NCBI GenBank assembly: GCA_037137395.1
Contig: JBAXKK010000007.1
Location: forward strand, 1 to 50,158
Direction: 5' to 3'
DNA: 50,158 nt
From: Elusimicrobiota bacterium
GTDB lineage: Bacteria > Elusimicrobiota > Elusimicrobia > Elusimicrobiales > UBA9959
The notes under the pieces are model-generated. The model did not search any database and was not told the origin of the DNA. It saw nothing but the letters and a program-made list of their open reading frames with translations. How positions within the stretch are numbered: the first letter of the stretch is position 1; each line of letters begins with the position of its first letter. Position numbers and translations under genes: made by a program. Shown piece after piece: positions 14,035-46,372 of this stretch.

Positions 14035-14039
14035 AGACT

Positions 14040-14315: not shown

Positions 14316-15690
14316 CTCTACAGAAATCAAAGAAGTCTGGCATAATATCTTAAAAAAACTTGAAGGCGACATAGGCCTTGAGGCGGTGGACCTTTGGCTT
14401 AGACCCATAAAACCACTGGTCATGGACGGAGATATAATTAAATTAGAAGTCCCGGATCCCGTCATATATAAAACTGTTAAAGAGCGCTATGAGGAAAAGA
14501 TAATAAAAGCGGCGCTATTCTCTACCGGTAAAAACTTCTCTATAAACTATTCCCTCTCCCTAGCGTCAAGTGAGCCCAAGCCCGCGCCAAAAATTGAGAT
14601 TGTTCGGGAAGAGACCCACAACCGCACCCCCGGCGCGGGACAGCCTCCGACTTTAGCATTTAATCCTAACTATACTTTTGAGACTTTTATAGAGGGCGCC
14701 TCCAACAGATTCGCCTATGCTTCCGCCGTGGGCGTATCGCGGAGCCCTGGCAAATCCAACCCTTTCTTTATATATAGCGCGCCCGGACTGGGAAAAACAC
14801 ATTTACTGCACGGCATCGCCAACGAGATGCTTAAAACCAATCCGTCTGCCCGTATTATATATACTGCCAGCGAAAATTTTGTGAATGAGTATATAGAAAC
14901 ACTGCAGAATAAAACCCCTGAAGCTTTCCGCAAGAAGTATCGCCGCCTGGATTGCCTTCTTTTGGACGATATACAGTTCCTTATAGGCAAGGACCGCAGT
15001 GAAGAAGAATTTTTTAATACTTTTAATTCCCTTTTTGAATCGAAAAAACAGATTGTGGTAACCTCGGACCGGCCTCCTAAAGAACTGGCTCTCAGCCAGC
15101 GCCTGGTATCACGCTTCCTTTCCGGCCTGGCGGTTGATATAAAAATTCCTGATGTGGAAACCCGCATTGCCATCCTGCGGCAGAAAAAAGAGCTTCACAA
15201 CTTCGTTATTCCGGACGAAGTTATTACTTTTATCGCGGAAAAAGTAAAAAAGAACATCAGAGAGCTTGAAGGCTGCCTTATAACCGTGGGGAATTACTGT
15301 GCAAACATGAGCACTCAGCCAACAATAGATATAGTAAAGGAAATTATAAAAGATCACATGGCCCCTGGTGATCAGGAAGAAAACAACATTCACATAGATA
15401 CCATCAAAACAGTGGTGGCCGACAAATACGGCATGGATAGAAAGGATTTTAAGTCCCCTCGCAAAACCGAGGCCATCGCTTTCCCGCGCCAGATAGCCAT
15501 GTTCCTTGCCTGCGACCTTACTGAAATGTCTTTGCCCGAAATCGGCGCCGCTTTCAACAGGGATCACACCACGGTTATGTTCGCGCGGGATAAAATAAAG
15601 CAGCTTGTGCACACGGACCCGTATTTTAACGAGGTTATAAATCAGTTGATATCTAAGATAAAAGCTGTTAATAACTCTGTAAAGCCCTGA
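14308..15690 (+). CDS. dnaA: Chromosomal replication initiator DnaA
   Basis: NPNYTFETF, NPFFIYSAPGLGKTHLL, LLLDDIQF, TSDRPP, NIRELEG, RQIAM, RDHTTV. Confidence 0.98.
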   Translation: MDNSTEIKEVWHNILKKLEGDIGLEAVDLWLRPIKPLVMDGDIIKLEVPDPVIYKTVKERYEEKIIKAALFSTGKNFSINYSLSLASSEPKPAPKIEIVREETHNRTPGAGQPPTLAFNPNYTFETFIEGASNRFAYASAVGVSRSPGKSNPFFIYSAPGLGKTHLLHGIANEMLKTNPSARIIYTASENFVNEYIETLQNKTPEAFRKKYRRLDCLLLDDIQFLIGKDRSEEEFFNTFNSLFESKKQIVVTSDRPPKELALSQRLVSRFLSGLAVDIKIPDVETRIAILRQKKELHNFVIPDEVITFIAEKVKKNIRELEGCLITVGNYCANMSTQPTIDIVKEIIKDHMAPGDQEENNIHIDTIKTVVADKYGMDRKDFKSPRKTEAIAFPRQIAMFLACDLTEMSLPEIGAAFNRDHTTVMFARDKIKQLVHTDPYFNEVINQLISKIKAVNNSVKP

Positions 15691-15782
15691 AAAAGATGTT
15701 TTTTTCTGGGGATGCTCGGTTATTTTTAAGTGTCTGTTGATAATTTTTCCAAATGCTACTAACAGTACTAACATTATGCACA
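15666..15782. promoter_or_regulatory. DnaA-box-like cluster in dnaA-dnaN spacer
   Basis: TGTTAATAA 15666, TGTTGATAA 15735, abutting 9-mers CTACTAACA-GTACTAACA-TTATGCACA 15756-15782. Confidence 0.55.
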
Positions 15783-15807
15783 GCCTCTCTTATAGATGGA
15801 GAATACG

Positions 15808-16923
15808 ATGAAAATAACTGGTAATAGGGACAATTTAATAAAGGGCATTCAAACCATCCAGGCCGGAACGTCTTCAAAAACCGGAACAATTCCCATCCTA
15901 CAGAATTTTTTGATGGAAACAGAGGATTCTGGATTAAAAGTTGTTTTTACTGATCTAGAAATGGCAGTTAAGCACCACATAAACGTCGATATTAAAACTG
16001 CCGGCAGCATTACTGTTCCCGTAAAGAAGTTTATGGAGGTTATACAGAATCTGGCGGAGGGAGCGGAAGTTAATATATCTGCGGACGAATCGAACAGAAT
16101 ATTAATAAACAGCGGAAAATCTAAATTTAAAATAAGCGGGGCGCCAAAAACAGATTATCCCGTAATTCCCGATCTGGACGAAACAAACTCTTTCAGGGTT
16201 CCCGCCGGTACGCTGGCGGCGATGATAAGCGGGACTATTTTTTCCGCCTCCACGGAAGACGACAGACATTTTTTAAACGGACTGTTATGGAAATATGAAA
16301 AAGACCTTTTTTCGGTAGTAGCTACGGATGGACGCCGTCTGGCACTAGCTTCCACCGATAAGGTTAAAAGCAAAAAGGATTTCAAAGTAATAGTTCCTTC
16401 AAAAATATTAAATGAGTTGGTTAAATTTATAAAGGCGGCGGAACTAGAGGATAAAGAAGAAATTATTGTAGGCCTTTCCTCCAATCAAATAGGATTTAAA
16501 ATTGAGAAAACCGTTTTTATATCCCGGCTGATAGAAGGTAATTTTCCCGCGTATGATCAAATTATCCCTAAAACCAAGGAAATATCCATAGAGACGGATA
16601 TTCCTAAATTTGTAGCCGTTACCAAAAGGGCCGCCGTTTGTTCAACAGAACGCGGAGGAGCTGTTAAATATACTTTTAAAAAAGGGATTATTGTTGTGAA
16701 TTCAGCCTCCCAGAACATGGATTTTGAAGATGAAATGGAAGTGGCTTATACTGGAAAGGAATTTCAGGTCAGCTTTAATCCTAAATTTATTCTGGATATA
16801 CTTAAGACCGCCGGCGAAGGCAAAGCTATACTTGATTTTAATACGCCGGCTACCCCGGTAATGGTAAGAATACCGGACAATAATAAATTCACTTATATTG
16901 TAATGCCACTCAGAATCCAATAA
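15808..16923 (+). CDS. dnaN: DNA polymerase III beta clamp
   Basis: TDLEM, ATDGRRLA, SRLIEGNFPAY, FNPKFILD, MPLR; GGAG RBS favours 15808 (alternative start 15796). Confidence 0.97.
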   Translation: MKITGNRDNLIKGIQTIQAGTSSKTGTIPILQNFLMETEDSGLKVVFTDLEMAVKHHINVDIKTAGSITVPVKKFMEVIQNLAEGAEVNISADESNRILINSGKSKFKISGAPKTDYPVIPDLDETNSFRVPAGTLAAMISGTIFSASTEDDRHFLNGLLWKYEKDLFSVVATDGRRLALASTDKVKSKKDFKVIVPSKILNELVKFIKAAELEDKEEIIVGLSSNQIGFKIEKTVFISRLIEGNFPAYDQIIPKTKEISIETDIPKFVAVTKRAAVCSTERGGAVKYTFKKGIIVVNSASQNMDFEDEMEVAYTGKEFQVSFNPKFILDILKTAGEGKAILDFNTPATPVMVRIPDNNKFTYIVMPLRIQ

Positions 16924-16928
16924 AAACT

Positions 16929-17234
16929 ATGTTTTTAACCAAAAAAACCTCCAATTGGACCAATATAGGGTATGTTAAAAATTCATGGAAGTCCTTGGGA
17001 GGAATAGTGCCGGAAAGGCTTGTTATATTGGACGCCGTATGGGCAAAAGAGATAGGACGGCTTGGTGACCACTGTGAATTGATTGGCGTTAATAAAGGAT
17101 ATATAGTTGTTAAAACAAATTCCTCAGTGGCTTATAATGAACTTGTTATGAGGTCTAAGCAAATACTGCGCAGCCTTAATAAATATTTTTCAAAGCCCTG
17201 GCTGAAAGGAATAAAAACGGCGGCGGATATTTAA
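16929..17234 (+). CDS. DUF721 / DciA-like protein
   Basis: W..EIG..G..IVVKTNSSVAYNEL..I...LN pattern; usual position between dnaN and gyrB. Confidence 0.75.
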   Translation: MFLTKKTSNWTNIGYVKNSWKSLGGIVPERLVILDAVWAKEIGRLGDHCELIGVNKGYIVVKTNSSVAYNELVMRSKQILRSLNKYFSKPWLKGIKTAADI

Positions 17235-17250
17235 TTTTTACACCTTTTGA

Positions 17251-19728
<2,478 letters not shown>

Positions 19729-25315: not shown

Positions 25316-25849
25316 ATGGAAAACAAAAAATCGGCTCTGGTAAGTGTGGTCGCGTGGGCCTTTATAATATTCGGGGGTTGGCACGTCGCCCGCGCGGCGT
25401 ACGATAACTTCACCCTGGCGGCAATGTTCTCTTCACCAGGGTTCATGCTGGGGTTGGCTGGCGCGACTATACCGGTGGAAACACCGCCGCTGGCTCGCTT
25501 TGCTGTGGCGCATATAAGGATGGTATTCGTGTTTTATTTATTCGCCTCTCTTACAGTGTTGATCGCTGGGGTGGGATTGTCATTTCGGAAAGCCTGGGCG
25601 TTGAATTCTTCTAAATGGTTTTTTTACATCAGTGCAGCATGCTGTCTGCTCATTTTTCTTTTTCCGGGACTGCTTATTCCTAAACCCTACATATACGCCG
25701 GAGTTTCGCTGGCTCCGGAGTTTAACTCCGCCGTGGAGCATATGAGGTTTCAGCTGCGCCTGTTCTCGGTGGTTCCAGGCGCAGCCGGCCTGTGGCTCGC
25801 CAGGCGTTTAGAGAATGATGAAATAAGGCGGGAGTTCGGACTTAAATAA
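25316..25849 (+). CDS. Hypothetical membrane protein (~4 TM)
   Basis: Four hydrophobic segments; 17 bp upstream of the next gene, same strand. Confidence 0.7.
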   Translation: MENKKSALVSVVAWAFIIFGGWHVARAAYDNFTLAAMFSSPGFMLGLAGATIPVETPPLARFAVAHIRMVFVFYLFASLTVLIAGVGLSFRKAWALNSSKWFFYISAACCLLIFLFPGLLIPKPYIYAGVSLAPEFNSAVEHMRFQLRLFSVVPGAAGLWLARRLENDEIRREFGLK

Positions 25850-25866
25850 TATTATTAGAGATCATC

Positions 25867-27531
25867 ATGAAAAACATGAGAAAACGTATTTTTCGCGCCG
25901 CAATGACAATACTGGTATTTCTACCCGCCGCCGGATACGGCGCCGGATTTAAGATGGACTGGGTGGAGAACGAAGTTGCCGTGGATCGGGACGGAAAAGC
26001 CCAGATATCCTACGCGGTCAGGTGGACGGTTTCAGGCGGGCCGCTGCACGGGTTTTATTTTGAAGGGTTCCAGGAAACGCCGGTTTTTGACATGGATGAA
26101 GCCTACGCGCTGGACGCGGACGGTAAAAAATACGCGCTTGAAATAGTTAAAGTTTCCGACAAGAAATATGACATTGTTCTGGCTGACGGAGCCGCTTTTA
26201 ATAACGGACAAATAACCTATTTTTTCCGTTATGCCGCGGATCTGGAGGGGGCCGGTAATCTGACTCAGACCATGGCGGGTGATAAACGCCTGGTCGTATT
26301 CAACTGGTCGCCGGTGCAGTGGCAGGACAGGATGAGTCACCAAGCTGTGACGGTGCGTTTCCCCGTCATCGTCCCCGGCGAAAACGCCGACGACGCCTTC
26401 CTTGCAGAGGCCGGGTTCCTGACCGAAAAGTTCATAAATGAGCGCTATAGTATAGATTATCCGTTAGTAAAAAACGAGGATGGTGAAAATGTTTTCAGCG
26501 CCCGCTTCTTCCGGCGGAACCTCGGCAGCCGGTACCATTTCCAGATACAGACTTATCTGGACGCGCGGTATTTCAGTCTGAAGACCATGGCATACGGGGG
26601 GCTCTTAAAGGGCCCGCCGCAAAAGACCAAATATCTGCCGGCGGAGGAAGAATACTATTTAAACCGCTATTCTCCGGGAACAATGCTGGCCGGTCTGCCT
26701 ATCAGTCGCGGCGAGGCCGTTTTTTTAACGCTGATAATGGCGGGTGTTTTCTGCGTTCTGCCTTTTTTTATAATGACCATAAAGCATAAATCCATGCTTA
26801 GCGCGGCCGAGGGCATTTCCGCGGTCAACTGGGACGGCGCCGAGTGGACGCCGCCCAAATTGCAGGTTGGCACCTTCCGCAAGCCGGGGAAAGTGGCGAC
26901 AAGTCTGACGCCCATAGAGGCCGGGATCTTGCTGGAGATGCCGGTGGGAGAGCTTGTGTCCCTTATGGTGGCCAACATGGAACGCAAAGGGCTTATAAAG
27001 ATAAAAGCGGTAGAACCGTTATGCGTTGAGAGGCTGTCGCAGGTGACGGCAAGTAACGACCCCTATGAAACCGTCCTCCTGAACTCCGTGAAGCCGGACG
27101 GAACCCTTGACCAGGCCATGGTAAGCGAAACGATAAAAACGATCGCGGCCGGCCTTGAGCAAAAGCTCTGGGATTGCGACCTTGCGGCCACCAAAGCCTA
27201 TTACAAAAAAAATCTTGATAAATATCTGCCCGGAAAAGCGGACACGGACCGGGATTATTATTGGGGCGGTTACCGGCGCCGCTTCAACGGTTATATAAAC
27301 CCTGTCTACGCGCGGGTGGAAAGCGTAAACAAGGATCTGGGGAAGAAAATTTCGGAGCTCAGCGCTTCCTTTGAAAAGTTCAGGGATACGCAGGCCTGCT
27401 ATGAAGGAGCTTTCAGCAAGACTGTATGCCATGACGCCTGCCACGACGCCTGTCACTCGGCCTGCCATTCGGCGTGTCATTCGGCCTGCCACGGGGCGTG
27501 TCATTCCGCCTGCGTTAGCAGCGGACATTAA
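25867..27531 (+). CDS. Signal-peptide, single-TM protein (DUF2207-like ectodomain) with C-terminal (CHxA)7-C repeat; candidate radical-SAM substrate
   Basis: Signal peptide (..LVFLPAAGYGA), beta-rich ectodomain, TM VFLTLIMAGVFCVLPFFIMTI, LTPIEAGILL, ends CHDACHDACHSACHSACHSACHGACHSACVSSGH. Confidence 0.8.
   Translation: MKNMRKRIFRAAMTILVFLPAAGYGAGFKMDWVENEVAVDRDGKAQISYAVRWTVSGGPLHGFYFEGFQETPVFDMDEAYALDADGKKYALEIVKVSDKKYDIVLADGAAFNNGQITYFFRYAADLEGAGNLTQTMAGDKRLVVFNWSPVQWQDRMSHQAVTVRFPVIVPGENADDAFLAEAGFLTEKFINERYSIDYPLVKNEDGENVFSARFFRRNLGSRYHFQIQTYLDARYFSLKTMAYGGLLKGPPQKTKYLPAEEEYYLNRYSPGTMLAGLPISRGEAVFLTLIMAGVFCVLPFFIMTIKHKSMLSAAEGISAVNWDGAEWTPPKLQVGTFRKPGKVATSLTPIEAGILLEMPVGELVSLMVANMERKGLIKIKAVEPLCVERLSQVTASNDPYETVLLNSVKPDGTLDQAMVSETIKTIAAGLEQKLWDCDLAATKAYYKKNLDKYLPGKADTDRDYYWGGYRRRFNGYINPVYARVESVNKDLGKKISELSASFEKFRDTQACYEGAFSKTVCHDACHDACHSACHSACHSACHGACHSACVSSGH
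27427..27513 (+). repeat. 12-bp coding tandem repeat x7 encoding CHxA, plus final Cys
   Basis: TGY CAY NNN GCS units with synonymous variation. Confidence 0.95.
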
Positions 27532-27537
27532 AGGGGA

Positions 27538-27572
27538 AGTGATTAGTGGATAGTGGTCAGTGCATAGTGGGG
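27538..27572. repeat. Degenerate 7-bp tandem repeat
   Basis: AGTGATT AGTGGAT AGTGGTC AGTGCAT AGTGGGG. Confidence 0.65.
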
Positions 27573-27611
27573 GAGAGGATAATAATATTTTGGGATGACC
27601 GAAGATCAGAG

Positions 27612-28967
27612 ATGATGAAACCGGAGTGGGAAAAAAGAACGGAGTGGATAGACGGCTATGTCGCGCGCATAAAGCCTTATGTGCGAGTGCGCCGCGCCGA
27701 CTTGCTGCTTATAAAGATTCCTAACCAGGCCTACAAATTAAATCCGCAGGGGCTGAAGCTCCTGGAATACCTGATGGCGGGCGGGAAAACAGCGGATATT
27801 CTGGCCGCCTACGAAGATAAGGAGCGGGTGTCGCTGGACATGTACTGGTTTTTCAGGGATCTGACGGCGCTTTTAAAGGGTTGCTACAACGAGACAACGG
27901 AGCGGCTGGCTGTGGAAAAGGTCCCATTCTCTCTGCCGTATAATTTGCTGCCGGTTCTGAGCGAGATCGCAGTCACTTATCGTTGCAACCTCTCCTGCAG
28001 ATTCTGCTACGCGGCTTGCGGATGTAAGAAGGACGAGGCCCATCCGGATCTCCCCGCCGCGCGCCTTAAAGAAGCGCTGGATATAATAAGCAAAGAAGCC
28101 GGGGTCCCGTCAGTCAGCTTCACCGGCGGAGAGCCTGTCCTGCGCCCGGAGCTGCCGGAACTGGTCGCCCACGCCAAAAGCCTGGGAATGTGGGCTAACC
28201 TTATAACCAACGGCACACTGCTAACTCCGGAAAAAGTGTCGCAGCTGAAAGCCTCAGGCCTTGATTCCGCCCAGGTAAGCATAGAGGGGGGGTCGGCCGG
28301 GACACACGATTGTATTGTGCAGAGCAACGGCGCTTTTGACGCGGCTGTGAGAGGGATAAAGAATCTATTGGAAGCCGGCCTGCGGGTGCACACCAACACG
28401 ACTGTTTCGGCGCTCAATAAAGATTCTCTGCCGGAAATAGTAGAGCTTGTGAAAAGCCTTGGCCTCGGCAAATTTTCCATGAATATGCTCATGCCGGTAG
28501 GTTCAGCAGGCGCAAATCTTGAAGAGACCTTCATTTCCTATACTGAGATAGGTCCGGTGATTGAAACAGTTCAAGGCTTGGCGGAACGGGCGGGCCTGGA
28601 GTTTATGTGGTATTCGCCAACGCCGATGTGCGTTTTTAATCCCGTGACCAAAGGCCTTGGTAATAAGGGCTGCGCCGCCTGCGATGGTCTTCTGAGCCTG
28701 GCGCCGAACGGCGACATCCTGCCCTGCTCAAGCTATCCCAGGCCGATGGGAAATATACTGGAACATAAAGGAGCGTTCCGCGAGCTGTGGGAAAGCGGTC
28801 CCTTTAAATTTTTTCAGGAAAAAGGGTTCACCCATGAGATCTGCCGGAAATGTGAAGATCTCGCCGTCTGTAACGGAGGCTGTCCCCTTTACTGGGAGAA
28901 AGCCGGCTACGGCGAATTAATAAAACATAACGAGGTGAAAAATGGCGCTGTTTCCTCCGCCCGATAA
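27612..28967 (+). CDS. Radical SAM/SPASM protein with N-terminal PqqD/RRE-like domain (putative peptide/protein maturase)
   Basis: CNLSCRFC (CX3CX2C), FTGGEP, TNGTLL; SPASM Cys set CAAC..PNGDILPC..CRKCEDLAVCNGGCP; N-terminal LLIKIPNQAYKLNPQGLKLLEYL; start 27612/27615 preferred over 27546. Confidence 0.9.
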   Translation: MMKPEWEKRTEWIDGYVARIKPYVRVRRADLLLIKIPNQAYKLNPQGLKLLEYLMAGGKTADILAAYEDKERVSLDMYWFFRDLTALLKGCYNETTERLAVEKVPFSLPYNLLPVLSEIAVTYRCNLSCRFCYAACGCKKDEAHPDLPAARLKEALDIISKEAGVPSVSFTGGEPVLRPELPELVAHAKSLGMWANLITNGTLLTPEKVSQLKASGLDSAQVSIEGGSAGTHDCIVQSNGAFDAAVRGIKNLLEAGLRVHTNTTVSALNKDSLPEIVELVKSLGLGKFSMNMLMPVGSAGANLEETFISYTEIGPVIETVQGLAERAGLEFMWYSPTPMCVFNPVTKGLGNKGCAACDGLLSLAPNGDILPCSSYPRPMGNILEHKGAFRELWESGPFKFFQEKGFTHEICRKCEDLAVCNGGCPLYWEKAGYGELIKHNEVKNGAVSSAR

Positions 28968-29967
28968 AGACGGGCAGATAAAATTTATTATCGCTAAAAG
29001 TCTGCCGTACAAGCCGCGCATGGCTTTGATAGCCGGGCTTTTGTTGGCGGGCCTGGGCCTTGAGGTCGGATTTTCTTTCTGGGCCGGTCTGGCGGTCCTG
29101 CTCGCCGCGTCCCTGTTCGGCATGGTGCAGGGTTATGACGCCACGCCCCGGATCGCGGGCGCGCAAAAGTGGGAGCGGGTTACGCCGGACGAATACACGA
29201 AGATTAAATTAAAGGCCGACCAGCTTAAGCGCTGGGATGAGGATATGTTTGACATCACCAATACCACCGGAGCGCTGGTGTTCGTCGCTATTTTCATTCT
29301 CTGCGTGGGCATATACCTGGCACTGGCCGGCACATTCGGTTTCCCTGTCGGCTACTGTAATTTAGTGGGGATTAACGCGGCCGTTCTTATCGCGCCGCTC
29401 TGGTTCACCGGCGTGAAGGAGTATCTGCGTAAAGACCGGCTTATAATCAAAATAAATCTTCTTGAGGGCGTCATGAGGGCTCTGACCCCGCTTAGCGAAG
29501 TTCAGGTGTTCCCCATGCTGGCCCTTGCCGAGACCAGCGAAGGGAAGCAAGACCCCGAGGACGCCCGGCTGCTGATAAATCTGGTAGGAGCCCCGGCATC
29601 GTTCTATGGCGTCCAGGCTCAGATCTCCATAAATGGCGTGAAGGGGCAGGATTTCCCATATCTTTATTGCGTGCTTATAACTAAAGCGGGGTCCGGCCTG
29701 CTTGACGGCTATGAGCGGTTTATGGCTAAACCCAGTGAATCTTCAGGCATGATTTCTGATTTTTTTATGAGGTTTGTAAATCCCGGCCAGAAGCTGGTTT
29801 ACGAGGCGCAGAAAAACCCGGACGCCGACATCCTTGTAATTCGTCAGCTTGCCGAGAAAAACAGGGGCTACTCTACCGGGCAGAAGGAAGCGGACGCGAT
29901 AGTCTCAGCATCGCTGGAAATGGCTAAAAAGCTGATCGGCGGCAAGGGCCCCGACGCTGTTTCTTAA
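28942..29967 (+). CDS. Hypothetical membrane protein (~4 TM plus soluble C-terminal domain)
   Basis: Overlaps the rSAM 3' end by 26 nt, with a GAGG RBS; hydrophobic segment pairs. Confidence 0.75.
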   Translation: MALFPPPDKDGQIKFIIAKSLPYKPRMALIAGLLLAGLGLEVGFSFWAGLAVLLAASLFGMVQGYDATPRIAGAQKWERVTPDEYTKIKLKADQLKRWDEDMFDITNTTGALVFVAIFILCVGIYLALAGTFGFPVGYCNLVGINAAVLIAPLWFTGVKEYLRKDRLIIKINLLEGVMRALTPLSEVQVFPMLALAETSEGKQDPEDARLLINLVGAPASFYGVQAQISINGVKGQDFPYLYCVLITKAGSGLLDGYERFMAKPSESSGMISDFFMRFVNPGQKLVYEAQKNPDADILVIRQLAEKNRGYSTGQKEADAIVSASLEMAKKLIGGKGPDAVS

Positions 29968-30240: not shown

Positions 30241-30272
30241 TATAATTGTTTATCGGACTTTCGGAGGCGAGC

Positions 30273-31106
30273 ATGTGGAATTACACTGAAAAAGTTTATG
30301 AGCACTTTAAGAATCCCCGGAATGTCGGTGAAATAGAGAACCCTGATGCCGTAGGCGAGGTCGGCAGCATTATCTGCGGCGACGCTCTTAAGCTTACGCT
30401 CCGGATAGACAAGGCCGCCGATAAAATAACTGACGCCAAGTTTAAGACATTCGGCTGCGCGTCGGCCATAGCCTCTTCATCCGCTCTGACCGAAATGATA
30501 AAGGGTAAGACGCTGGCGGAAGCGTCCAAAATAACAAACCATGAAATAGCCGAATACCTCGGCGGCCTGCCCAGCGAGAAGATGCATTGTTCGGTTATGG
30601 GCATGGAGGCGCTTGAGGCGGCCATAAAAAATTACCGAGGCGGAAAGGCGGAGAAAGTTATTCTTGACTCGGGGGAACGCCTGGTGTGTAAATGCTTCAG
30701 CGTGACCGAGGGAAAGATCTTAAGAGCCATAAAGGAAGAGAGCCTTAGGACGGTTGAGGAAGTTACAAATTTCACCAAGGCCGGCGGCGGGTGCCGCCAG
30801 TGCGTGGGCGAAATAGAGAAAATACTTAAAGATTACTGGGCCCGGGCCGAACATAAAACCTTCGCCAAAATGACCGTCGTGGAGAAGGTTAAGATGGTTG
30901 AAAAAGTTCTAGCCGAAGATGTTAATCCAAAATTGAAACTGGACGGCGGGTGGATAGAACTTGTTGATCTGGACGGCGATAAAGTCAAGGTGCGGTTCCT
31001 TGGAATGTGTTCCAGCTGCCCGTCTTCTTCCGCCACGCTCAAAAATATAGTTGAAAAAGAGCTGAAGGAAAAAATAGATCAGGCGCTGATAATTGAGGCG
31101 CAGTAG
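30273..31106 (+). CDS. nifU: Fe-S cluster scaffold NifU (IscU + BFD-like + Nfu domains)
   Basis: HFKNPRNVG, CGDAL, TFGCASAIAS, KMHCS; CKC..GGGCRQC; DGGWIEL..GMCSSC; GGAGG RBS. Confidence 0.93.
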   Translation: MWNYTEKVYEHFKNPRNVGEIENPDAVGEVGSIICGDALKLTLRIDKAADKITDAKFKTFGCASAIASSSALTEMIKGKTLAEASKITNHEIAEYLGGLPSEKMHCSVMGMEALEAAIKNYRGGKAEKVILDSGERLVCKCFSVTEGKILRAIKEESLRTVEEVTNFTKAGGGCRQCVGEIEKILKDYWARAEHKTFAKMTVVEKVKMVEKVLAEDVNPKLKLDGGWIELVDLDGDKVKVRFLGMCSSCPSSSATLKNIVEKELKEKIDQALIIEAQ

Positions 31107-31231
31107 CGCCTCAATGATCGCCATAGGCTTTAGGCTATAAGCCATACGCAGGAACCGTAAAGGAATTTCCTTATATAAGGCCTACGGCTTAAAGCTTATA
31201 GCAATCGCAGTAGATTACGAGAAGGATTTTT

Positions 31232-32434
31232 ATGGAAAATGATAAGGTTATATACCTTGATAACAATGCCACTACCCGCGTGGCGCCTGAAGTTGCCGAA
31301 GAAATGAGGCCGTTTTTCACTGAATTGTACGGCAATCCATCTAGCATGCATTTTTTCGGCGGCGGCGTGCAGAAGCATCTGGATGCTGCACGCCGGAAAG
31401 TGGCTGAGCTTCTGGGAGCTTCCCCGGAGGAGATAATTTTTACCAGCTGCGGCACCGAGTCTGACTCCACCGCTATCTGGTCGGCGCTGCGCGCCTACCC
31501 GGACAAAAAGCATATCGTTACCACCAAAGTTGAGCATCCCGGAGTGCTGAATGTGTGTAAATTTCTTGAGGCCCAGGGGTACCGCGTTACCAGCCTACCG
31601 GTGGACGGAGAAGGCCGCTTAAACCTGGAAGACCTTAAAATCGCAATCACTCCTGACACCGCGCTTGTTTCCATAATGTGGGCAAATAATGAGACAGGGG
31701 TTGTATTTCCGGTTGAGGAAGCCGCGCGGATCACTCACGCCAAGGGCGCCCTGTTCCACACCGACGCCGTGCAGGCCGTGGGTAAGATCCCCATAAACCT
31801 TAAAGATACCAAGATAGACATGCTCTCCCTCTCGGGCCATAAACTGCACGCCCCTAAAGGAATCGGCGTTCTCTATGTTAAAAAAGGCGCGCGTTTCTCG
31901 CCCTTCATGCTGGGCGGCCATCAGGAGCGCGGCCGTCGGGCCGGCACGGAAAATGTCCCCTATATCATCGGTCTCGGCAAGGCCGCTGAGCTGGCGCTCA
32001 AGAATATGGAAAAAGAGAACGCCTATGTAAAAGCCCTGCGGGACCGGCTTCAGGACGGGCTCGTGAAGGGCGTCAGGAATGTCCGCGTGAACGGCGGCGG
32101 GGCGGAGCGCCTGCCAAACACGACTAATATAAGTTTCGAATATATAGAAGGTGAATCCATCCTGATCATGCTCAGCGAAAAAGGTATATGCGCCTCATCC
32201 GGTTCGGCCTGCACTTCCGGTTCACTTGAGCCGTCGCATGTAATGATGTCCATGGGCGTGCCGCAGACCTACGCGCACGGCTCCATCCGTTTTTCCTTTA
32301 GTGTCTATAATACCGAGGAAGAGGTTGATGCTGTTATCCGCGAATTGCCTGCCATCATAGACCGCCTGCGCGCCATCTCGCCTTTCGCGGACGGCAAGCC
32401 GCTCTTCGGCATGGACGCCTGCGAGAGACATTAA
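31232..32434 (+). CDS. nifS: Cysteine desulfurase NifS
   Basis: YLDNNATT, YGNPSS, FTSCGTE, HTDAVQ, SGHKLH, SSGSACTS; paired with three-domain nifU. Confidence 0.95.
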   Translation: MENDKVIYLDNNATTRVAPEVAEEMRPFFTELYGNPSSMHFFGGGVQKHLDAARRKVAELLGASPEEIIFTSCGTESDSTAIWSALRAYPDKKHIVTTKVEHPGVLNVCKFLEAQGYRVTSLPVDGEGRLNLEDLKIAITPDTALVSIMWANNETGVVFPVEEAARITHAKGALFHTDAVQAVGKIPINLKDTKIDMLSLSGHKLHAPKGIGVLYVKKGARFSPFMLGGHQERGRRAGTENVPYIIGLGKAAELALKNMEKENAYVKALRDRLQDGLVKGVRNVRVNGGGAERLPNTTNISFEYIEGESILIMLSEKGICASSGSACTSGSLEPSHVMMSMGVPQTYAHGSIRFSFSVYNTEEEVDAVIRELPAIIDRLRAISPFADGKPLFGMDACERH

Positions 32435-37297: not shown

Positions 37298-38206
37298 TTA
37301 TTTCGTGGGATGACGGACAGGATATGGGACTCTACGGAAGGGGCCTGCGCCGGCCCGGGGTTCCGGTTTGAAATCGCGATACGCCGCGCCCACGGCGGTC
37401 ATCTCTCCTGAGACACTTTTATAAAGAGACGCCTTTTCATAGAAGATTTTATGAGGTTTAAGGTCGCATATCGCGGCGAACCACGCGTAGCGTTCCACGA
37501 ACGGCAGCTCCTCAAGCAGAGGCAGTGCTTTGGGGATGAAATCGGTGTTGTGTTTGTAAGTGAGCGGTTTATTCTTAAGGAATTTCCAGTCGCCCCCGGA
37601 GAATTCAGTCAACCAGATAGGCAGGCGGTATTTATCGTGAAGGTCCAGAAGGTAACTGGCCATCATGGCGGGGCCCTGCGGGTCGGTGACGTCGTCATAC
37701 CAGTGCACGCAGAGAAAGTCCACGCGGTACCCCCGGGCTTTGGCCTTTGACATAAACTCTTCCAGCCAGCGCGCGCCAGCCTCGCTTTGCGTTACGGCGG
37801 GGCTGCCCAGGCGCTTGCCCGTGGCCATCAGTTTAGGCCATAGTTCAATGGCTTTTTCCACCGACATAGCTGACTGCTCGGCGAAGTCCGGCTCATTAAA
37901 ACCGAGCAGATGCGTGTATTTCGGGTTAGCCTTAATTGAGGCCAGAGCTTTATCGGTGGCGAAAAATCCACTCCAAATCATGGGCACAAATTCAGCTTCG
38001 GTCTCGCCGGCGGAGGGCTCAGTCCCCCAATTATAATACCAACTGACCTTAAGACCATTAACGCGCGCCGACGCCCCGGGCAGATAGTCGCCGACGCCCT
38101 TCTTGCCCGACAGCCGGGAGGATTGCGAATCGCAAGACGCGATAAGCAGCAGAACTGGCAAGAGGGCGGCCGTAAGGCCTATTTTTCTCAAGGGTATATT
38201 TATCAT
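37298..38206 (-). CDS. Lipoprotein glycoside hydrolase, GH128-like
   Basis: Lipobox LIASC; WYYNW, FVPMIW, LGFNEPD, VHWY, PIWLTEF, VERYAWF. Confidence 0.85.
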   Translation of the reverse strand: MINIPLRKIGLTAALLPVLLLIASCDSQSSRLSGKKGVGDYLPGASARVNGLKVSWYYNWGTEPSAGETEAEFVPMIWSGFFATDKALASIKANPKYTHLLGFNEPDFAEQSAMSVEKAIELWPKLMATGKRLGSPAVTQSEAGARWLEEFMSKAKARGYRVDFLCVHWYDDVTDPQGPAMMASYLLDLHDKYRLPIWLTEFSGGDWKFLKNKPLTYKHNTDFIPKALPLLEELPFVERYAWFAAICDLKPHKIFYEKASLYKSVSGEMTAVGAAYRDFKPEPRAGAGPFRRVPYPVRHPTK

Positions 38207-38223
38207 GTGTGCAGCCGCGCGTT

Positions 38224-41124
38224 TTATTCGGCGCGGACAAGAACCTTGGCGGGCTTAAGCCCGTCCGTCTCGGCTGTAAGAATTATTTCTCCGCCCGCGG
38301 CCGCGGGGCGCAGGATAGCCAGGGCTTGTCCGCGGAACAGCTGCCTGGTGTCGGTTTGGAAGCCGGCCGTGTTCAGGGGGTCGCCGCTGCATACCCCGGA
38401 CAATTCTCCCTGGCCGGTGACTGAGAAGCGGACGGCGCCAGAGGCATTTGGTACCGGCTCGCCGGTCTCGTCGAGAACATCGACGGTAATATAGGCCAGG
38501 TCGTTGCGGTCGGCGCGTATGGTCGTGCGGTCCGCGGTCAGGCGCAGGCTATAGGGCTTGCCGGAGGTGCGCAGCACCGCCGAATCCGCCTCTTTACCGT
38601 CGACCAGGCCCACGGCTCGAAGTTCTCCCGTAGTGTAGGGCACATCAAACACCGCGGTCAGAGCTGTTTCCGCCCCAAGATCGGGAGTCACAAACCTTCC
38701 GTTGAAACTGGTGTCGCGCGAGATAGGCTTAGTGCCCACCTCTTTACCGTTGAGCAGGAGCCTTACCTCGGGATAGGTGGAGTAAACTTTTACCTGCATA
38801 GTCCGGCCTTCCTGTCCGGCCCAATTCCAGCTGCGCTCCTCGTCCGGCCAGCCCCATTGCCCTACGGCCTCGCTGCGTCCTTCCGGCAGGGGGCGGCGCA
38901 CGGCCAGCTCCAGCTTGCTGCGGCCCCAGACCACGTCGCGGTAGTAAGACTGGGGCTGCCTGAAGCCGCAGATATCTATGTCGCCGCAGTTGGCGAGGTT
39001 CCATGGCCAGGGTTTAAGGTAGCTGTGTAGGTCGGTGTCCAGCTCGGTATGACCGATGCCGGACTCGCCGATGTAGTCAAAGCCCGTCCATACGAAATCG
39101 CCGATGACCCAGGGCATCTCCTCCACCTGTTTCCAGTATTCATAGATGCGGGCCGGCAGCGATTCCGTGCCCACCATAACTCGTTTAGGCTGACGCTGGT
39201 GGTCAATGGCATAGCGGTTTGAATTATAATTATAGCCGGCCACATCCAGCGCGGCAAAGTAGGGGTCGGCCCCGTCATCAACTTCGTTATACGCCGCCGT
39301 CACCGGCCTGGTGGGATCGAGCTGGCGGACATAGTCGGCTAAACGCTTCGCGAGCCTGGCACCCTTGTCAGTTTTTCGCTCGGCAATCTCGTTTCCGATG
39401 CTCCACATTATAATGCTGGGATGGTTGCGGTCCCGCAGCACCATGCTTGTGATATCTTGCCGCCACCAATCCTTGAAGAAGCGGTGGTAGTCCATCGGGT
39501 TTTTCCCGGTCTCCCAATTATCAAAGGCCTCGTCCATTACCAGCATGCCCAGGCGATCGCACGCGTCCAGTAGTGCTGGGGACGGCGGGTTATGGCTGGT
39601 GCGGATAGCGTTGAAGCCTGCCGCCTTAAGCAGCTCCACGCGGCGCTCCTCGGCGCGGTCGATGGCGATTGAGCCGAGCGGGCCGTTGTCGTGATGCACG
39701 CAGGCGCCCTTGAGCTTGACCGGTTCGCCGTTGATGCGCAGGCCTTTCTCGGCGTCCACTTCTATGGAGCGTATTCCGAATCTGGTTTCAGTACTATCCA
39801 GTGTTTTATCTTCTGATATAATCTCGACCCGGGCCAGGTAGAGGTTTGGTTGCGAAGTAGACCACAGGGCGGGCTTGGTTACCATGATATCTAGCGCGAC
39901 CGGTCCGCTGTTCTTGCGGGGGATAGTGACCGGGACTTCGGCAACGCCCGAGGGTGAACCGTCCGGAGCTATCAGGCTAACCCGTAGACGCGCGTCGGTC
40001 CGGGCGCCGGTGTTCCCCAGCGAAACTGACACGCTGACAGTGGCTTTATCCGGGCTCACTAGGGGAGTCGTGACGGATACGCCCCATAGCGGGATATGCA
40101 CGGGCCCGGTGACGGTCAGCCAGGTGTGCCGGTAGATGCCTGAGCCGCTGTACCAGCGGCTGTTTGCGCCCAGGTTTCGCACGCGCACGGCCACGACATT
40201 TGTTTCGCCGGCGGGCTTGAGCCCGGAGCTTATATCATAGACAAAAGTGGTATATCCGTAAGGGTGGTTGCCCAGGTGCCGTCCGTTAATCCAGATATCC
40301 GCGTCCATATATACGCCGTCGAAGCGCAGTTCCACGCGGCGCCCCTGGTCGGCTGCAGGAATGATAAAGCTTTTACGGTACCAACCTGTACCCCCTACGG
40401 TGTGGCCGGTCGCGGCTCCGCCCGGGCTGGCGCCGGGGTCGAAAGGACCGACGCGCTTTCCCGGGCCGAGCGGGTCGTAGAGGCCAGCGATGCCGGGGTT
40501 AGGGGAATAGACGCGCACCGCCACCACATTGTCTCCTTGGCGGATCAGCCGCGCGGGGACGGGATAGCTGCGGTAGGATTGATAGACATTAGACCAAAAA
40601 TCCTCAAAGTTTGGAGGGAAACTGCCGATGCCGCCGACGCGCACGCCGTTGAAGAAAACTTCGTCGGCGCCCATCACGGTTCCAAGATCGAGTTGGAGGT
40701 CCTTGCCGCGCTGGGCGGGTGAGACGCTGATATGCCGCCGATACCAACCGAAATTTTGGGATTGATCGTAGCCTGAATGGTCCTTCCATTTGGCGGGGAG
40801 CACGACTTTCTGCCAGGCGTCGTCGTCAAGGGAGGCCTTCTTCCAGGAGAGGTCGTCGCCTTGTTTAAACAGCCACTCTCCGTCGCGCGCGGCCAGGACC
40901 GCGATGTCGTCCTGCTCGCGCGGCGGAAGAGCTTCTATGCTCCAATCATGCGGCAGATCCAGGAGGCGCCAGGCGGAATCCTGGAATCCGGGACGCTCAG
41001 CCCCGGCCGCGTCGCCGCGATGGAACCGCCAACCCTCGTCGAAGGACCGCTCGCGTCCGCCGTCAGCGGCGGCATGGCCCGGCATCGGCGCCAGCGCCAA
41101 TAAGGCGAAAAGGAACAAGTTCAT
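38224..41124 (-). CDS. Secreted GH2 glycoside hydrolase (beta-galactosidase-like) with extra inserted sugar-binding domain
   Basis: LDLPHDWSIE, FDGVY, HPYGYT, SRWYSGSGIYR, RTSHNPP, WSIGNE, GTES, WTGFDYIGE. Confidence 0.9.
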   Translation of the reverse strand: MNLFLFALLALAPMPGHAAADGGRERSFDEGWRFHRGDAAGAERPGFQDSAWRLLDLPHDWSIEALPPREQDDIAVLAARDGEWLFKQGDDLSWKKASLDDDAWQKVVLPAKWKDHSGYDQSQNFGWYRRHISVSPAQRGKDLQLDLGTVMGADEVFFNGVRVGGIGSFPPNFEDFWSNVYQSYRSYPVPARLIRQGDNVVAVRVYSPNPGIAGLYDPLGPGKRVGPFDPGASPGGAATGHTVGGTGWYRKSFIIPAADQGRRVELRFDGVYMDADIWINGRHLGNHPYGYTTFVYDISSGLKPAGETNVVAVRVRNLGANSRWYSGSGIYRHTWLTVTGPVHIPLWGVSVTTPLVSPDKATVSVSVSLGNTGARTDARLRVSLIAPDGSPSGVAEVPVTIPRKNSGPVALDIMVTKPALWSTSQPNLYLARVEIISEDKTLDSTETRFGIRSIEVDAEKGLRINGEPVKLKGACVHHDNGPLGSIAIDRAEERRVELLKAAGFNAIRTSHNPPSPALLDACDRLGMLVMDEAFDNWETGKNPMDYHRFFKDWWRQDITSMVLRDRNHPSIIMWSIGNEIAERKTDKGARLAKRLADYVRQLDPTRPVTAAYNEVDDGADPYFAALDVAGYNYNSNRYAIDHQRQPKRVMVGTESLPARIYEYWKQVEEMPWVIGDFVWTGFDYIGESGIGHTELDTDLHSYLKPWPWNLANCGDIDICGFRQPQSYYRDVVWGRSKLELAVRRPLPEGRSEAVGQWGWPDEERSWNWAGQEGRTMQVKVYSTYPEVRLLLNGKEVGTKPISRDTSFNGRFVTPDLGAETALTAVFDVPYTTGELRAVGLVDGKEADSAVLRTSGKPYSLRLTADRTTIRADRNDLAYITVDVLDETGEPVPNASGAVRFSVTGQGELSGVCSGDPLNTAGFQTDTRQLFRGQALAILRPAAAGGEIILTAETDGLKPAKVLVRAE

Positions 41125-41198
41125 AGGCTCTCCTGAGTGAAAAAATACGCCGCGCTAACGCGGTAGATCCCGCATTAGCGCAGCGCGAAGGCAGGGGC

Positions 41199-44826: not shown

Positions 44827-44833
44827 TTCATCC

Positions 44834-46348: not shown

Positions 46349-46372
46349 ATGTTTTTAGTTGGAATCTCCGTG

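Follow-up and report, generated by a model that had tools for sequence, protein, structure and literature searches.

A radical SAM/SPASM enzyme and a membrane protein with a Cys-His repeat tail in a conserved three-gene bacterial cassette

Introduction

The precursors of SCIFF and freyrasin are short free peptides. A larger target is found in quinohemoprotein amine dehydrogenase, whose gamma subunit is cross-linked by QhpD. This subunit, QhpC, is small and exported, carries Cys-to-Asp/Glu links, and comes with a leader, a protease, and a transporter. The targets of the TIGR04117 and ACGX systems are small stand-alone proteins, and to our knowledge neither system has been experimentally characterized. 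Membrane proteins of the DUF2207/TIGR04222 type often end in low-complexity Gly/Ser/Cys-rich tails.

In the CrpC/CrpA system of Methanococcus voltae, described in September 2026, an enzyme with radical SAM, SPASM, and RRE domains installs ranthionine thioethers on a 28.8-kDa Cys-rich protein (PMC13692751). The SPASM domain of CrpC holds seven Cys, and one iron of an auxiliary cluster was proposed to be available as a binding site for a substrate Cys; QhpD/QhpC is named there as a precedent (PMC13692751). On an HAA motif, HaaB joins C2 of His1 to C-beta of Ala3 (PMC11499958). Canonical DUF2207 genes are reported to be paired with LemA and not with a radical SAM gene (PMC12631010).

Here, a locus from an Elusimicrobiota bacterium is analyzed. 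The window is the whole stretch of DNA that was studied, with a length of 50,158 nucleotides. We consider it probable that the locus encodes a conserved three-gene membrane module in which an RRE-bearing radical SAM enzyme modifies the cytoplasmic tail of a 554-aa protein.

Results

Gene organization of the locus

Four co-oriented ORFs are present on the + strand, as first described. The first (25316-25849) encodes an adjacent membrane protein of 177 aa with about four hydrophobic segments by hydropathy. The second (25867-27531) encodes the 554-aa tail protein, which has a signal-peptide-like N-terminus and one strong hydrophobic segment by hydropathy, a single TM helix at residues 285-303 (26719..26775; Kyte-Doolittle 19-mer mean 2.61). 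As read from the sequence and the ortholog pattern, this protein ends in (CHxA)7 (residues 521-548) and a terminal CVSSGH (residues 549-554), the two together spanning 27427..27528. The third gene encodes a radical SAM/SPASM enzyme of 452 aa (27609..28967). Its ORF is open from a GTG at 27546 and ends at 28967, and the likely start is the ATG at 27609, where the ortholog alignments begin. The fourth gene (28942-29967) encodes the 341-aa partner, and its start overlaps the 3' end of the radical SAM gene by 26 bases.

The preliminary description had also named a signal-peptide/single-TM protein with the terminal Cys-His repeat, and a radical SAM enzyme with the motif CNLSCRFC, a SPASM Cys set, and an RRE-like N-terminal extension of about 90 aa. 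These readings were borne out by the ORF and hydropathy for the former, and by Pfam matches, seven conserved SPASM cysteines, and the structural model for the latter. The same description had seen no transporter, peptidase, or short free-standing precursor peptide in the locus; neither there nor elsewhere in the genome was a transporter, a peptidase, or a free-standing CHxA peptide found.

Conservation of the three-gene unit

Relatives of the tail protein in genome contigs number 206. The radical SAM gene is the next gene after the tail gene in 76 of 80 loci from about 15 labelled lineages, and the remaining 4 break off after the tail gene. The gene of the 341-aa partner is present in 72 of the 80 loci, the other 8 being cut by contig ends. 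All-against-all clustering of the 3170 ORFs from these loci gave just three conserved families. Among 41 related genomes, the trio is adjacent in 10 of the 10 genomes with any full copy; the radical SAM orthologs in related genomes match at E <= 1.5e-194, and the next-best radical SAM matches reach only about 5e-30. In genomes without the trio, the flanking genes are directly joined, which indicates that the trio is gained or lost as one unit. The synteny of the tail gene, the radical SAM gene, and the downstream membrane gene is strict across many phyla. This co-inheritance of adjacent genes establishes a functional link; an enzyme-substrate relation goes beyond it.

The proposal of a four-gene system was not upheld, since the conserved unit has three genes. 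The 177-aa gene is a lineage-specific neighbour outside this unit. It is present in just 21 of the 80 loci, occurs without the trio in five genomes (G004, G009, G013, G016, and G022), and was not found in four genomes that bear the trio (G002, G008, G010, and G017). In G004, G016, and G009, nifU-nifS follow directly after it. In Elusimicrobia, the cassette adjoins nifU-nifS, and the nifU-nifS neighbourhood also exists without the cassette. In other phyla, the neighbours of the cassette are heterogeneous and consist of unrelated housekeeping genes. Among the neighbours examined, no conserved peptidase or exporter gene accompanies the cassette, and no LemA was found. A ferritin-like gene stands beside the cassette in one locus (L047), and a heavy-metal P-type ATPase gene in another (L062).

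Predicted topology of the tail protein

The tail protein is probably a distant relative of DUF2207, as judged from sequence comparison. PF09972 (DUF2207) matches it with an E of 0.0038 and 17.9 bits, below the gathering cut-off of 24.4. The same domain is among the precomputed annotations of two homologs (P0008 and P0018). Atlas neighbours of the protein are labelled DUF2207, with PF09972 in 17% of the members of one cluster. PF20990, the DUF2207 C-terminal domain, gave no match to the 554-aa protein at E <= 0.1.

The tail is predicted to be cytoplasmic, in line with the preliminary description. We infer export by the signal peptide, anchoring by one TM helix, and a part of about 250 residues in the cytoplasm, a topology taken from hydropathy alone. 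Within 15 residues of the TM helix, the homologs have a mean of 1.5 K/R before it and 3.1 after it. The K/R count is higher after the helix in 31 of 38 homologs, equal in 5, and lower in 2. In many homologs, a further and weaker hydrophobic stretch lies some 20-45 residues past the TM helix. If this stretch were membrane-spanning, the tail would be on the outside of the cell. Two features of the stretch speak against membrane spanning, namely an invariant Glu and Pro, and K/R-rich flanks on both sides.

Sequence and structure of the radical SAM/SPASM enzyme

By its sequence, the enzyme is a member of the radical SAM superfamily with a SPASM domain. PF04055 (Radical_SAM) matches at E 1.8e-25 with 90.5 bits against a cut-off of 29.5, and PF13186 (SPASM) matches ORF residues 379-437 at E 1.1e-7 with 32.4 bits against a cut-off of 21.5. 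The CxxxCxxC cluster motif, CNLSCRFC (27984..28007), contains C126, C130, and C133, which are invariant in 39 aligned orthologs. The ortholog alignment further places seven conserved cysteines in the SPASM region (28629..28883), namely C341, C355, C373, C412, C415, C421, and C425; all of them are invariant except C341, which is kept in at least 90% of the sequences.

The AlphaFold2 model of the enzyme has a pLDDT of 90.6. An RRE/PqqD-like domain at residues ~1-95 (27609..27893) was assigned from this model and from the alignment with SuiB. Its elements in the model are H14-24, E25-28, E33-36, E40-43, H46-56, H61-66, and H71-89, so that the modelled domain has the RRE fold, a winged helix with three beta strands and then three helices. 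The pLDDT is 83-97 over the domain block and 90-97 over the beta3-alpha3 part. PF05402 (PqqD) is precomputed on five close orthologs (P0090, P0094, P0097, P0098, and P0104); the N-terminal sequence of the window enzyme itself matches the PqqD-family model NF033530 weakly (E 0.082). The modelled RRE domain points to a peptide substrate.

The best structural matches of the full model were SkfB (Z 27.7) and SuiB (Z 25.7-26.5). The model aligns end to end on both of them; on SuiB, the alignment covers model 12-439 and chain 0-439, with the SuiB N-terminal domain included. SkfB (7.6e-31), PqqE (3.2e-26), and SuiB (1.9e-21) ranked first in the PDB profile search; TigE, anSME, and CteB ranked lower. 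CteB (5wgg) is a detectable relative, with an E of 4.1e-16 in the profile search and a Z of 22.6-22.9 in the structure comparison.

Comparison with radical SAM families

The enzyme reaches the cut-off of no NCBIfam family, including those of AhbD, NirJ, the SCIFF maturase, and CrpC. The SCIFF maturase model TIGR03974 gave 47.2 bits against 425, and no free Cys-repeat peptide is in the genome. The CrpC family TIGR04463 (rSAM_vs_C_rich) gave 54 bits against 525, over profile positions 85-396 only. The HxsC-type models gave 76.6 bits against 267.9 (HxsC) and 87.4 against 500 (HxsC4), and the ACGX radical SAM model TIGR04340 gave 88.7 against 400. A PADLOC defence system was also rejected: viperin models match the radical SAM core alone (87.9 bits), and the other three proteins have no match.

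PqqE gave 119.3 bits against 381 and MftC, the mycofactocin maturase, gave 91.5 against 265. The partners PqqA-D, MftA, MftB, and MftE are absent among the conserved neighbours, and both assignments were rejected. PqqA is the precursor of PQQ, and the C-terminus of MftA is the precursor of mycofactocin. The presence of these two enzymes among the NCBIfam matches, the second place of PqqE among the solved relatives, and a target at the extreme C-terminus as in MftA would suit a tail that is sacrificed as the precursor of a small redox cofactor or metallophore, cross-linked by the radical SAM enzyme, released by unlinked proteases, and carried by the membrane protein. This explanation is improbable: the scores lie far below both cut-offs, the cassette has no conserved peptidase or exporter beside it, and a leader of 520 residues, with its conserved ectodomain, TM helix, and cytoplasmic domain, would be very costly.

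The top NCBIfam scores of the radical SAM core belong to the small-molecule enzymes AhbD and NirJ2, with PqqE behind them, and all are far below cut-off. A placement of the enzyme with AhbC/AhbD/NirJ had been named as a result that would speak against the preliminary description, and it was not found: AhbD gave 148.5 bits against 500, NirJ2 137.4 against 500, NirJ 115.9 against 515, AhbC 110.9 against 650, and NirJ1 98.7 against 650. These haem-pathway matches bear on another explanation, in which the tail is a multi-haem wire and an AhbD/NirJ-like enzyme serves haem supply or attachment. Neighbouring repeat units read C-H-x-A-C-H, which is CX3CH, one of the known variants of the CXXCH motif for haem binding, and the C-x3-C-H motifs would be the haem c sites. 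However, the tetrapyrrole pathway was not found in the genome. HemB (PF00490), HemC (PF01379), and PF01578 (the CcsA/CcmC/CcmF family) have no match in this 98.9%-complete genome; the same searches gave matches in 9 to 11 of 14 control genomes. Moreover, the tail is predicted to be cytoplasmic and haem c attachment takes place outside the cytoplasm, Val and not His follows the last Cys, and the enzyme has an RRE domain, which is not known in AhbD or NirJ. A haem wire is thus very improbable.

Conservation of the Cys-His repeat tail

The 34-residue tail contains 8 Cys and 8 His. The pattern (C[HY]xA)n-CVS.. was found in 75 of 75 complete, unmasked ortholog tails, and n is 7 or 8 in 71 of the 75. 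The C, H, and A columns of the ortholog alignment are invariant or nearly so, and position x alone varies (S 365, D 105, G 74, N 3, A 1, H 1). The tail is the best-conserved part of the protein, and outside it the tail proteins share just ~33% identity. Scanning all six frames of the whole 2.70-Mb genome with a regular expression turned up a single stretch with at least two consecutive CHxA units, namely this tail, and no free-standing CHxA peptide. The CHxA repeat is not due to chance. The units differ at synonymous sites (TGC/TGT, CAT/CAC, GCC/GCG), which indicates that it is the protein sequence of the repeat that is maintained and that the repeat did not arise by recent DNA slippage.

With the 60-aa tail as the query, the matches were orthologous tails, a handful of repeat-only matches, some period-4 Cys repeats that are unrelated, and short proteins that look like fragments from the C-terminus. 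The sole NCBIfam match of a 68-aa tail query was TIGR04117 (16.6 bits, E 0.0061, cut-off 50). Membership in this family was rejected, and the likeness is confined to the repeat period.

It could be argued that the genes are adjacent without a shared function and that the repeat is a low-complexity tail as on other DUF2207-like proteins; residues 338-440 do match TIGR04222 weakly (E 0.0069). We give this explanation almost no weight. The 76 testable loci from many phyla contain zero synteny exceptions, the cassette is gained or lost whole, the tail is invariant while the remainder of the protein diverges, and the synonymous variation between the units implies selection on the peptide.

A weightier explanation is that the tail binds metal or iron-sulfur clusters without covalent modification, while the radical SAM enzyme acts on another part of the 554-aa protein, on the 341-aa partner, or on a bound cofactor or lipid. 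The Cys and His could be arranged in stripes along one side of a helix or a bundle. Such a density of Cys and His is typical ligand chemistry, and a fixed number of 7 or 8 units fits a structure of defined length. The nifU-nifS genes in Elusimicrobia and the ferritin-like and P-type ATPase genes elsewhere go in the same direction, and metal binding is suspected for CrpA by the Crp authors (PMC13692751). But the nifU-nifS adjacency is a lineage synteny that exists without the cassette and is replaced by housekeeping neighbours in other phyla. The RRE domain points to a peptide substrate, and ligand needs alone explain neither the invariant Ala nor the strict register of C-H-x-A. Metal binding and modification are also compatible with each other. 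Binding without modification is therefore judged unlikely, with a small but real share of the probability.

Structural prediction of the 341-aa partner

In the AlphaFold2 model of the 341-aa partner (pLDDT 87.3), four TM helices are combined with an alpha/beta domain at residues ~165-335, which is predicted to be cytoplasmic. The protein has no Pfam, NCBIfam, or PADLOC family match. Its fold is weakly similar to YbjN and to type III secretion chaperone-like proteins (Z 6.5-7.5), and Foldseek returned nothing at E <= 0.001.

Discussion

Proposed maturation of the tail

The tail protein always adjoins the radical SAM enzyme and a second membrane protein across phyla, which suggests that the radical SAM enzyme matures the tail. 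The observations cover the gene architecture, the synteny, the RRE fold, the SPASM cysteines, the conserved tail, and the lack of fit to any known family. From these we infer the topology, the tail as the substrate, the kind of chemistry, and any role in metal binding or signalling. The 554-aa protein would be exported via its signal peptide and anchored by its one TM helix, and its ~250 cytoplasmic residues would end in 7 or 8 Ala-Cys-His-x units and a CVSxGH terminus. The cytoplasmic radical SAM enzyme would dock through its RRE domain on this cytoplasmic part. The repeat units would then be modified one by one, with one SAM cleavage for each.

The most likely products would be intramolecular cross-links. 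A thioether from Cys-S to carbon is one candidate and has parallels in sactipeptides, ranthipeptides, and CrpA. A cyclophane from His-C2 to Ala-C-beta on the invariant H-x-A, as with HaaB, is the other. Either link could turn a floppy tail into a rigid ladder, with the leftover Cys or His side chains as possible metal ligands. The 341-aa partner, which has a chaperone-like cytoplasmic domain, probably serves to hold the tail or joins the mature protein in an assembly.

In the fullest form of this proposal, a processive radical SAM enzyme builds a cross-linked array of 7-8 units that is metal-binding or redox-active and coupled across the membrane to the extracytoplasmic domain, with the four-TM chaperone-like protein as the partner. 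This form is tentative, and we hold it as possible but doubtful. If true, it would represent a protein-borne cofactor made by RiPP chemistry in about 15 bacterial lineages, mostly uncultured, and the cross-link could be of an undescribed type, for example one to which each unit contributes its Cys as well as its His. The original idea that RiPP chemistry matures a membrane protein is kept in part: the synteny, the RRE domain, and the predicted topology favour it, but the thioether is one option of several and precedents exist. Of the outcomes named beforehand as speaking against the idea, the three that computation could address did not occur.

Comparison with known systems

SCIFF/CteB and PapB/freyrasin share with the present locus a periodic Cys core and a maturase with RRE, radical SAM, and SPASM domains. 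They differ in their short free precursor, as no free peptide is in the genome here. The acceptor Asp and Thr of SCIFF and freyrasin have no invariant counterpart in the tail, because position x varies.

The triceptide synthases act on an aromatic-X-X3 pattern, and the tail units have an invariant H-x-A with the same His and Ala as in HaaB. However, the invariant Cys of the unit has no role in triceptide chemistry, and the triceptide substrates are short peptides. The radical SAM enzyme is also below the cut-offs of HxsC and HxsC4 in the triceptide-related His-Xaa-Ser models. The TIGR04117 and ACGX-repeat systems likewise have a period-4 Cys repeat that is predicted as a radical SAM target, but the window proteins score far below both models (16.6 against 50 and 88.7 against 400).

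DUF2207 proteins (PF09972/PF20990) resemble the tail protein in having an exported N-terminal domain followed by a TM helix. The partner is a radical SAM enzyme here and LemA there (PMC12631010), and the PF09972 match is below cut-off.

In QhpD/QhpC, as in the present proposal, radical SAM RiPP chemistry matures the subunit of a complex and not a secreted peptide. QhpD/QhpC differs in its leader, protease, and transporter, none of which is found with the present cassette.

The CrpC/CrpA system has several features in common with the present cassette. In both, an enzyme with an RRE domain and a seven-Cys SPASM domain is encoded beside a protein, not a short peptide, with C-terminal repeated Cys motifs. 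Each cluster comprises three genes and lacks a protease and an exporter, and a metal-related role is suspected in both. The differences are also clear. The window enzyme scores 54 bits against the CrpC family cut-off of 525. CrpA has 17-residue repeats with C-x-x-Q/D and no membrane anchor described in the available text, whereas the repeat here is the 4-residue C-H-x-A on a single-pass membrane protein. The third gene is a CrpA paralog in the Crp cluster and a 4-TM protein here. Three supplementary files of PMC13692751 do not contain the terms DUF2207, Elusimicrob, Omnitroph, or CHSACH. The distribution of the present cassette is bacterial and covers many phyla, in contrast to the CrpC/CrpA system of Methanococcus voltae. 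RiPP chemistry on proteins thus has precedents in CrpC/CrpA and QhpD/QhpC, and what would be new here is a variant that is widespread in bacteria.

Gene organization of the locus

Four ORFs, all in one orientation, occupy positions 25316-29967 of the window. The first (25316-25849, + strand) encodes a 177-aa membrane protein. The gene of the 554-aa tail protein (25867-27531, +) begins 17 bases after it and is followed by the gene of the radical SAM protein (rSAM). The rSAM ORF (+) is open from GTG 27546 and ends at 28967; ATG 27609 was taken as the start because the ortholog alignments begin near that codon. The last ORF (28942-29967, +) encodes a 341-aa protein and overlaps the rSAM gene by 26 bases. 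In the Pfam scan, Radical_SAM and SPASM were found in the rSAM, and the 177-aa, 554-aa and 341-aa proteins had no match above cut-off. Similarly, no NCBIfam family was above cut-off for any of the four proteins. The ORF coordinates, the two Pfam domains and the Cys-His tail verify that the preliminary description of the four ORFs was accurate.

The sole match in the PADLOC scan was a generic viperin core. Promoter and terminator predictions were at background level (4 versus 3.9 expected and 11 versus 7.9 expected, respectively), and the Rfam and tRNA scans of the locus returned nothing. Among the sequencing runs listed by a search, there were no RNA runs. The G+C content of the window is 0.41-0.42 at 14001-18000 and 0.58-0.62 at 38001-48000, versus about 0.50-0.53 elsewhere.

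The conserved unit is a cassette of three genes

The locus had been proposed to be a four-gene system. Comparison of 41 related genomes indicates a unit of three genes. In the same 10 of them, this genome included, the genes of the tail protein, of a high-scoring rSAM ortholog and of the 341-aa protein lie side by side; an eleventh has nothing but a 46-residue partial match to the tail protein. The rSAM hits fall from E 1.5e-194 for the orthologs to about 5e-30 for the others. The 177-aa gene occurs in five genomes that lack the trio, was not detected in four that bear it, and was rejected as a member of the system. In three trio-less relatives the gene order is ACT-domain gene, 177-aa gene, nifU and nifS, with nothing between. 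Since the 177-aa gene is joined directly to nifU-nifS in these relatives, the trio is a discrete cassette that was inserted at, or lost from, the spot between the 177-aa gene and nifU. In the window, nifU-like and nifS-like genes lie 3' of the cassette at 30246-32434. This adjacency reflects the synteny of the lineage, because nifU-nifS also follow the 177-aa gene where the cassette is missing.

The synteny held across a much wider set of homologs. In a scan limited to a single genome for each species, 206 relatives of the tail protein were detected, of which the 80 best were retained as loci. The rSAM gene is directly downstream of the tail gene in 76 of these 80, and the remaining four (L016, L037, L064 and L086) stop with the tail gene. 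In 72 of the 80 the 341-aa gene comes next; contig ends truncate the other eight. When the 3170 ORFs of the best 80 loci were clustered, only the tail, rSAM and 341-aa families were conserved. The next-largest clusters of real genes, ranked with antisense shadow ORFs left out, were the ACT domain (27 loci), nifU (22), the 177-aa gene (21) and nifS (17), all lineage-specific. For 38 loci outside the Elusimicrobia, the neighbours (one or two per side) amounted, with one faulty reference removed, to 134 proteins, of which 81 were scanned with Pfam. These 81 were a housekeeping mixture, with no recurring transporter or peptidase beside the cassette.

Two clade-specific genes were observed directly upstream of the tail gene. 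One encodes a 129-aa soluble protein with 61-84% identity among five loci (L065:5422-5904, L066:5584-5970, L067:5497-5883, L068:5557-5943 and L071:5525-5911); L066-L068 are labelled Armatimonadota, and L065 and L071 'uncultured bacterium'. The other encodes a membrane-anchored protein of 209-228 aa in three spirochaete loci (L074:5375-6001, L088:5240-5899 and L090:5327-6010). Neither has a Pfam family. These proteins may be accessory parts in their clades.

Distribution of the cassette

Relatives of the tail protein are encoded in at least 206 genomes at species level. The labelled lineages of the best 80 of the 206 loci are Elusimicrobia, Omnitrophota, Auribacterota, Firestonebacteria, Planctomycetota, Armatimonadota, Acidobacteria, Hydrogenedentota, Spirochaetota, Bacteroidota, Gemmatimonadota, Calditrichaceae, Aminicenantes, Nitrospiraceae, Deferrimicrobium, three gammaproteobacterial lineages and one Clostridia-labelled bin. 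All 80 come from metagenome-assembled genomes except one single-cell genome. At least 2839 database proteins match the rSAM at E <= 1e-60, and the named matches among those listed are all 'radical SAM protein' or 'hypothetical protein'.

Conservation of the Cys-His-x-Ala tail

The last 35 residues of the tail protein hold the repeat, (CHxA)7-CVSSGH. All 75 complete, unmasked tails among the homologs fit the pattern (C[HY]xA)n-CVS with a further 3-4 residues, the last of which is His in 73 and Arg in two. Seven units are present in 41 tails and eight in 30; two tails have five, and single tails have nine and three. At position x, 365 units have Ser, 105 Asp, 74 Gly and 5 another residue. In the homolog alignment, the C, H and A columns show no or almost no variation, while overall identity to the window protein is 32-39% in distant clades. 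At the DNA level, the 12-base units match by only 68-81% and differ at synonymous positions (TGC/TGT, CAT/CAC, GCC/GCG); the repeat is therefore maintained as a peptide.

The preliminary description had seen no short free-standing precursor peptide in the locus, and wider searches agree with this. In a six-frame scan of the whole 2.70-Mb genome, the only run of two or more CHxA units was the tail itself. The last 60 residues, searched against 1.84 billion representatives, gave 35 hits; in most, the matched stretch lies at the C-terminal end of a protein some 490-600 aa long. Fourteen of the 35 were read. Three are fragments of the tail protein cut at the N-terminus, and one is a form of 843 aa that has two ectodomains. 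Seven are unrelated Cys repeats of period 4, and the last three are short hits sharing the repeat alone (an ACHx-type repeat in P0162 and P0172 and a related Cys-Tyr repeat in P0175). Among proteins of 33-105 aa, a search returned five matches: three look like C-terminal fragments and come from contigs shorter than 1.4 kb, and the remaining two have just a brief ACHS-type run in common with the tail. No convincing stand-alone precursor was found in the short-protein search or among the 14 tail hits.

Several other repeats were observed. The 843-aa form (P0151) has two apparent tandem ectodomains, then the same TM helix and cytoplasmic domain and a 10-unit tail. Unrelated database proteins retrieved with the tail query (P0153, P0175, P0176; P0160, P0166, P0169 and P0170) contain extended Cys arrays of period 4, of the types (C-Y-D/S-x)n and (C-E/Q-x-x)n, some with dozens of units. 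A 12-base tandem repeat on another contig of the genome (C52, near protein position 6120, outside the window) reads as (CLSV)n in three + frames and is probably a non-coding simple repeat.

Predicted topology of the tail protein

The tail protein has a signal-peptide-like start and one strong hydrophobic helix at 285-303, with no other segment above threshold. Lys and Arg residues average 3.1 after the helix versus 1.5 before it, and exceed those before it in 31 of 38 homologs. This enrichment predicts that the C-terminal 250 residues, including the tail, are in the cytoplasm, where an Fe-S enzyme could reach them, as had been proposed. A weaker hydrophobic stretch 20-45 residues past the TM helix reaches threshold in many homologs. 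It contains an invariant Glu and Pro and is flanked by basic residues on both sides, and for these reasons we read it as a probable buried helix, not a membrane span.

The ectodomain is probably a distant DUF2207 relative. No meaningful match turned up when the tail protein was searched as a profile against PDB sequences (best E 0.47). A 102-aa C-terminal fragment of the tail protein in the database (P0142) carries the precomputed Pfam accession PF27846.1; this recent entry may already cover part of the tail protein.

The rSAM has an RRE and lies outside the haem-pathway families

The AlphaFold2 model of the rSAM, built with a 39-sequence alignment, has a pLDDT of 90.6. Its residues 14-89 show the RRE pattern of one helix followed by three strands and three helices. 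The whole model aligned with two RiPP maturases, with SkfB at Z 27.7 over 341 residues (rmsd 3.8) and with SuiB at Z 26.5 over 373 residues (rmsd 3.9). The SuiB alignment includes its N-terminal domain, since it starts at model residue 12 and chain residue 0. Five close orthologs have a precomputed PqqD Pfam match, and the N-terminal domain of the window rSAM itself has a weak PqqD-family match (E 0.082). These data support the RRE proposed earlier. In the profile search against PDB sequences, SkfB, PqqE and SuiB were at the top, followed by BlsE, TigE, anSME and CteB.

The top NCBIfam scores of the rSAM core were with AhbD and NirJ2, each less than one third of the cut-off. The SCIFF maturase model gave 47 bits (cut-off 425) and the CrpC family model 54 bits (cut-off 525). 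The genome is 98.9% complete with 7.7% contamination, and has no match to HemB (PF00490), HemC (PF01379) or the CcsA/CcmF cytochrome c assembly family (PF01578); control genomes have matches. The organism seems, by its gene content, to be without tetrapyrrole synthesis and cytochrome c maturation. A haem-pathway role of the rSAM is unlikely on this evidence, and the enzyme falls outside the AhbD/NirJ families. The overlapping CX3CH motifs of the tail could also be read as haem c sites, and this reading was set aside on the same results. The genome encodes a second rSAM on contig C44 (15331-16536, - strand), with 189.6 bits against TIGR04463 (CrpC, 'versus Cys-rich protein'; cut-off 525), and about ten further rSAM/SPASM-like paralogs.

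When the rSAM was modelled in complex with tail-protein residues 455-554, without control runs, the score was 0.00 in both runs, which weighs neither for nor against binding. Clade-dependent variation was noticed both in the RRE beta-3 strand and immediately ahead of the repeat; it cannot show co-evolution because adjacent genes share their history.

The 341-aa partner

The model of the 341-aa protein (pLDDT 87.3) shows four TM helices and a cytoplasmic alpha/beta domain. Foldseek against the PDB gave no match at E <= 0.001, and a profile search of PDB sequences likewise had no meaningful match (best E 0.014). In an exhaustive structural search the best Z was 7.5. Many top rows were YbjN-like proteins or type III secretion chaperones, each matched over the whole domain, with middling Z of 6.5-7.5. 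The modelled fold hints at a polypeptide-binding role.

Substrate of the rSAM and comparison with known systems

The tail is the most likely substrate of the rSAM, an assignment that we consider reasonably probable. It is based on the exceptionless synteny, the gain and loss of the cassette as a unit, the RRE of the enzyme, the conservation of the tail beyond the rest of the protein, the lack of a free precursor and the predicted shared compartment.

Discussion of RiPP-type radical SAM enzymes has almost always centred on the production of secreted peptides. To our knowledge, modification of a whole protein by such an enzyme has few examples, QhpC and CrpA (CrpA in 2026). Of the candidate new system, the rSAM clade, the substrate architecture, the motif and the 341-aa partner are in none of the queried family libraries, and a search of the available literature returned no paper on this cassette. 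That an rSAM can modify a protein in RiPP-like fashion is, as a general idea, already in print for QhpC and CrpA.

If the assignment is true, the cassette adds a membrane protein as a substrate of RiPP-type rSAM chemistry. The very simple target motif, conserved at residue level across phyla, would make it a clean system for studying rSAM processivity along a repeat, and it also bears on which chemistry Cys-His-x-Ala supports. It would give a first way into the function of one branch of the DUF2207-like membrane proteins, a large and unexplained group, and of the 341-aa membrane protein family, which is without annotation. The interest is high because the cassette is widespread, sharply defined and directly testable.

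CteB, PapB and QhpD reportedly form thioethers on Cys-periodic substrates. Similarly, CrpC forms thioethers on a Cys-periodic substrate (PMC13692751). Of the candidate chemistries, thioether formation has the strongest precedent for substrates of this kind. However, the variable x of the units leaves no obvious conserved cross-link acceptor except His or Ala. HaaB is described as forming a cyclophane from His-C2 to Ala-C-beta on an H-x-A-type motif, and the invariant H-x-A of the tail units matches this motif (PMC11499958). A His-Ala cyclophane of the HaaB kind would leave the cysteines of the tail free, perhaps for metal.
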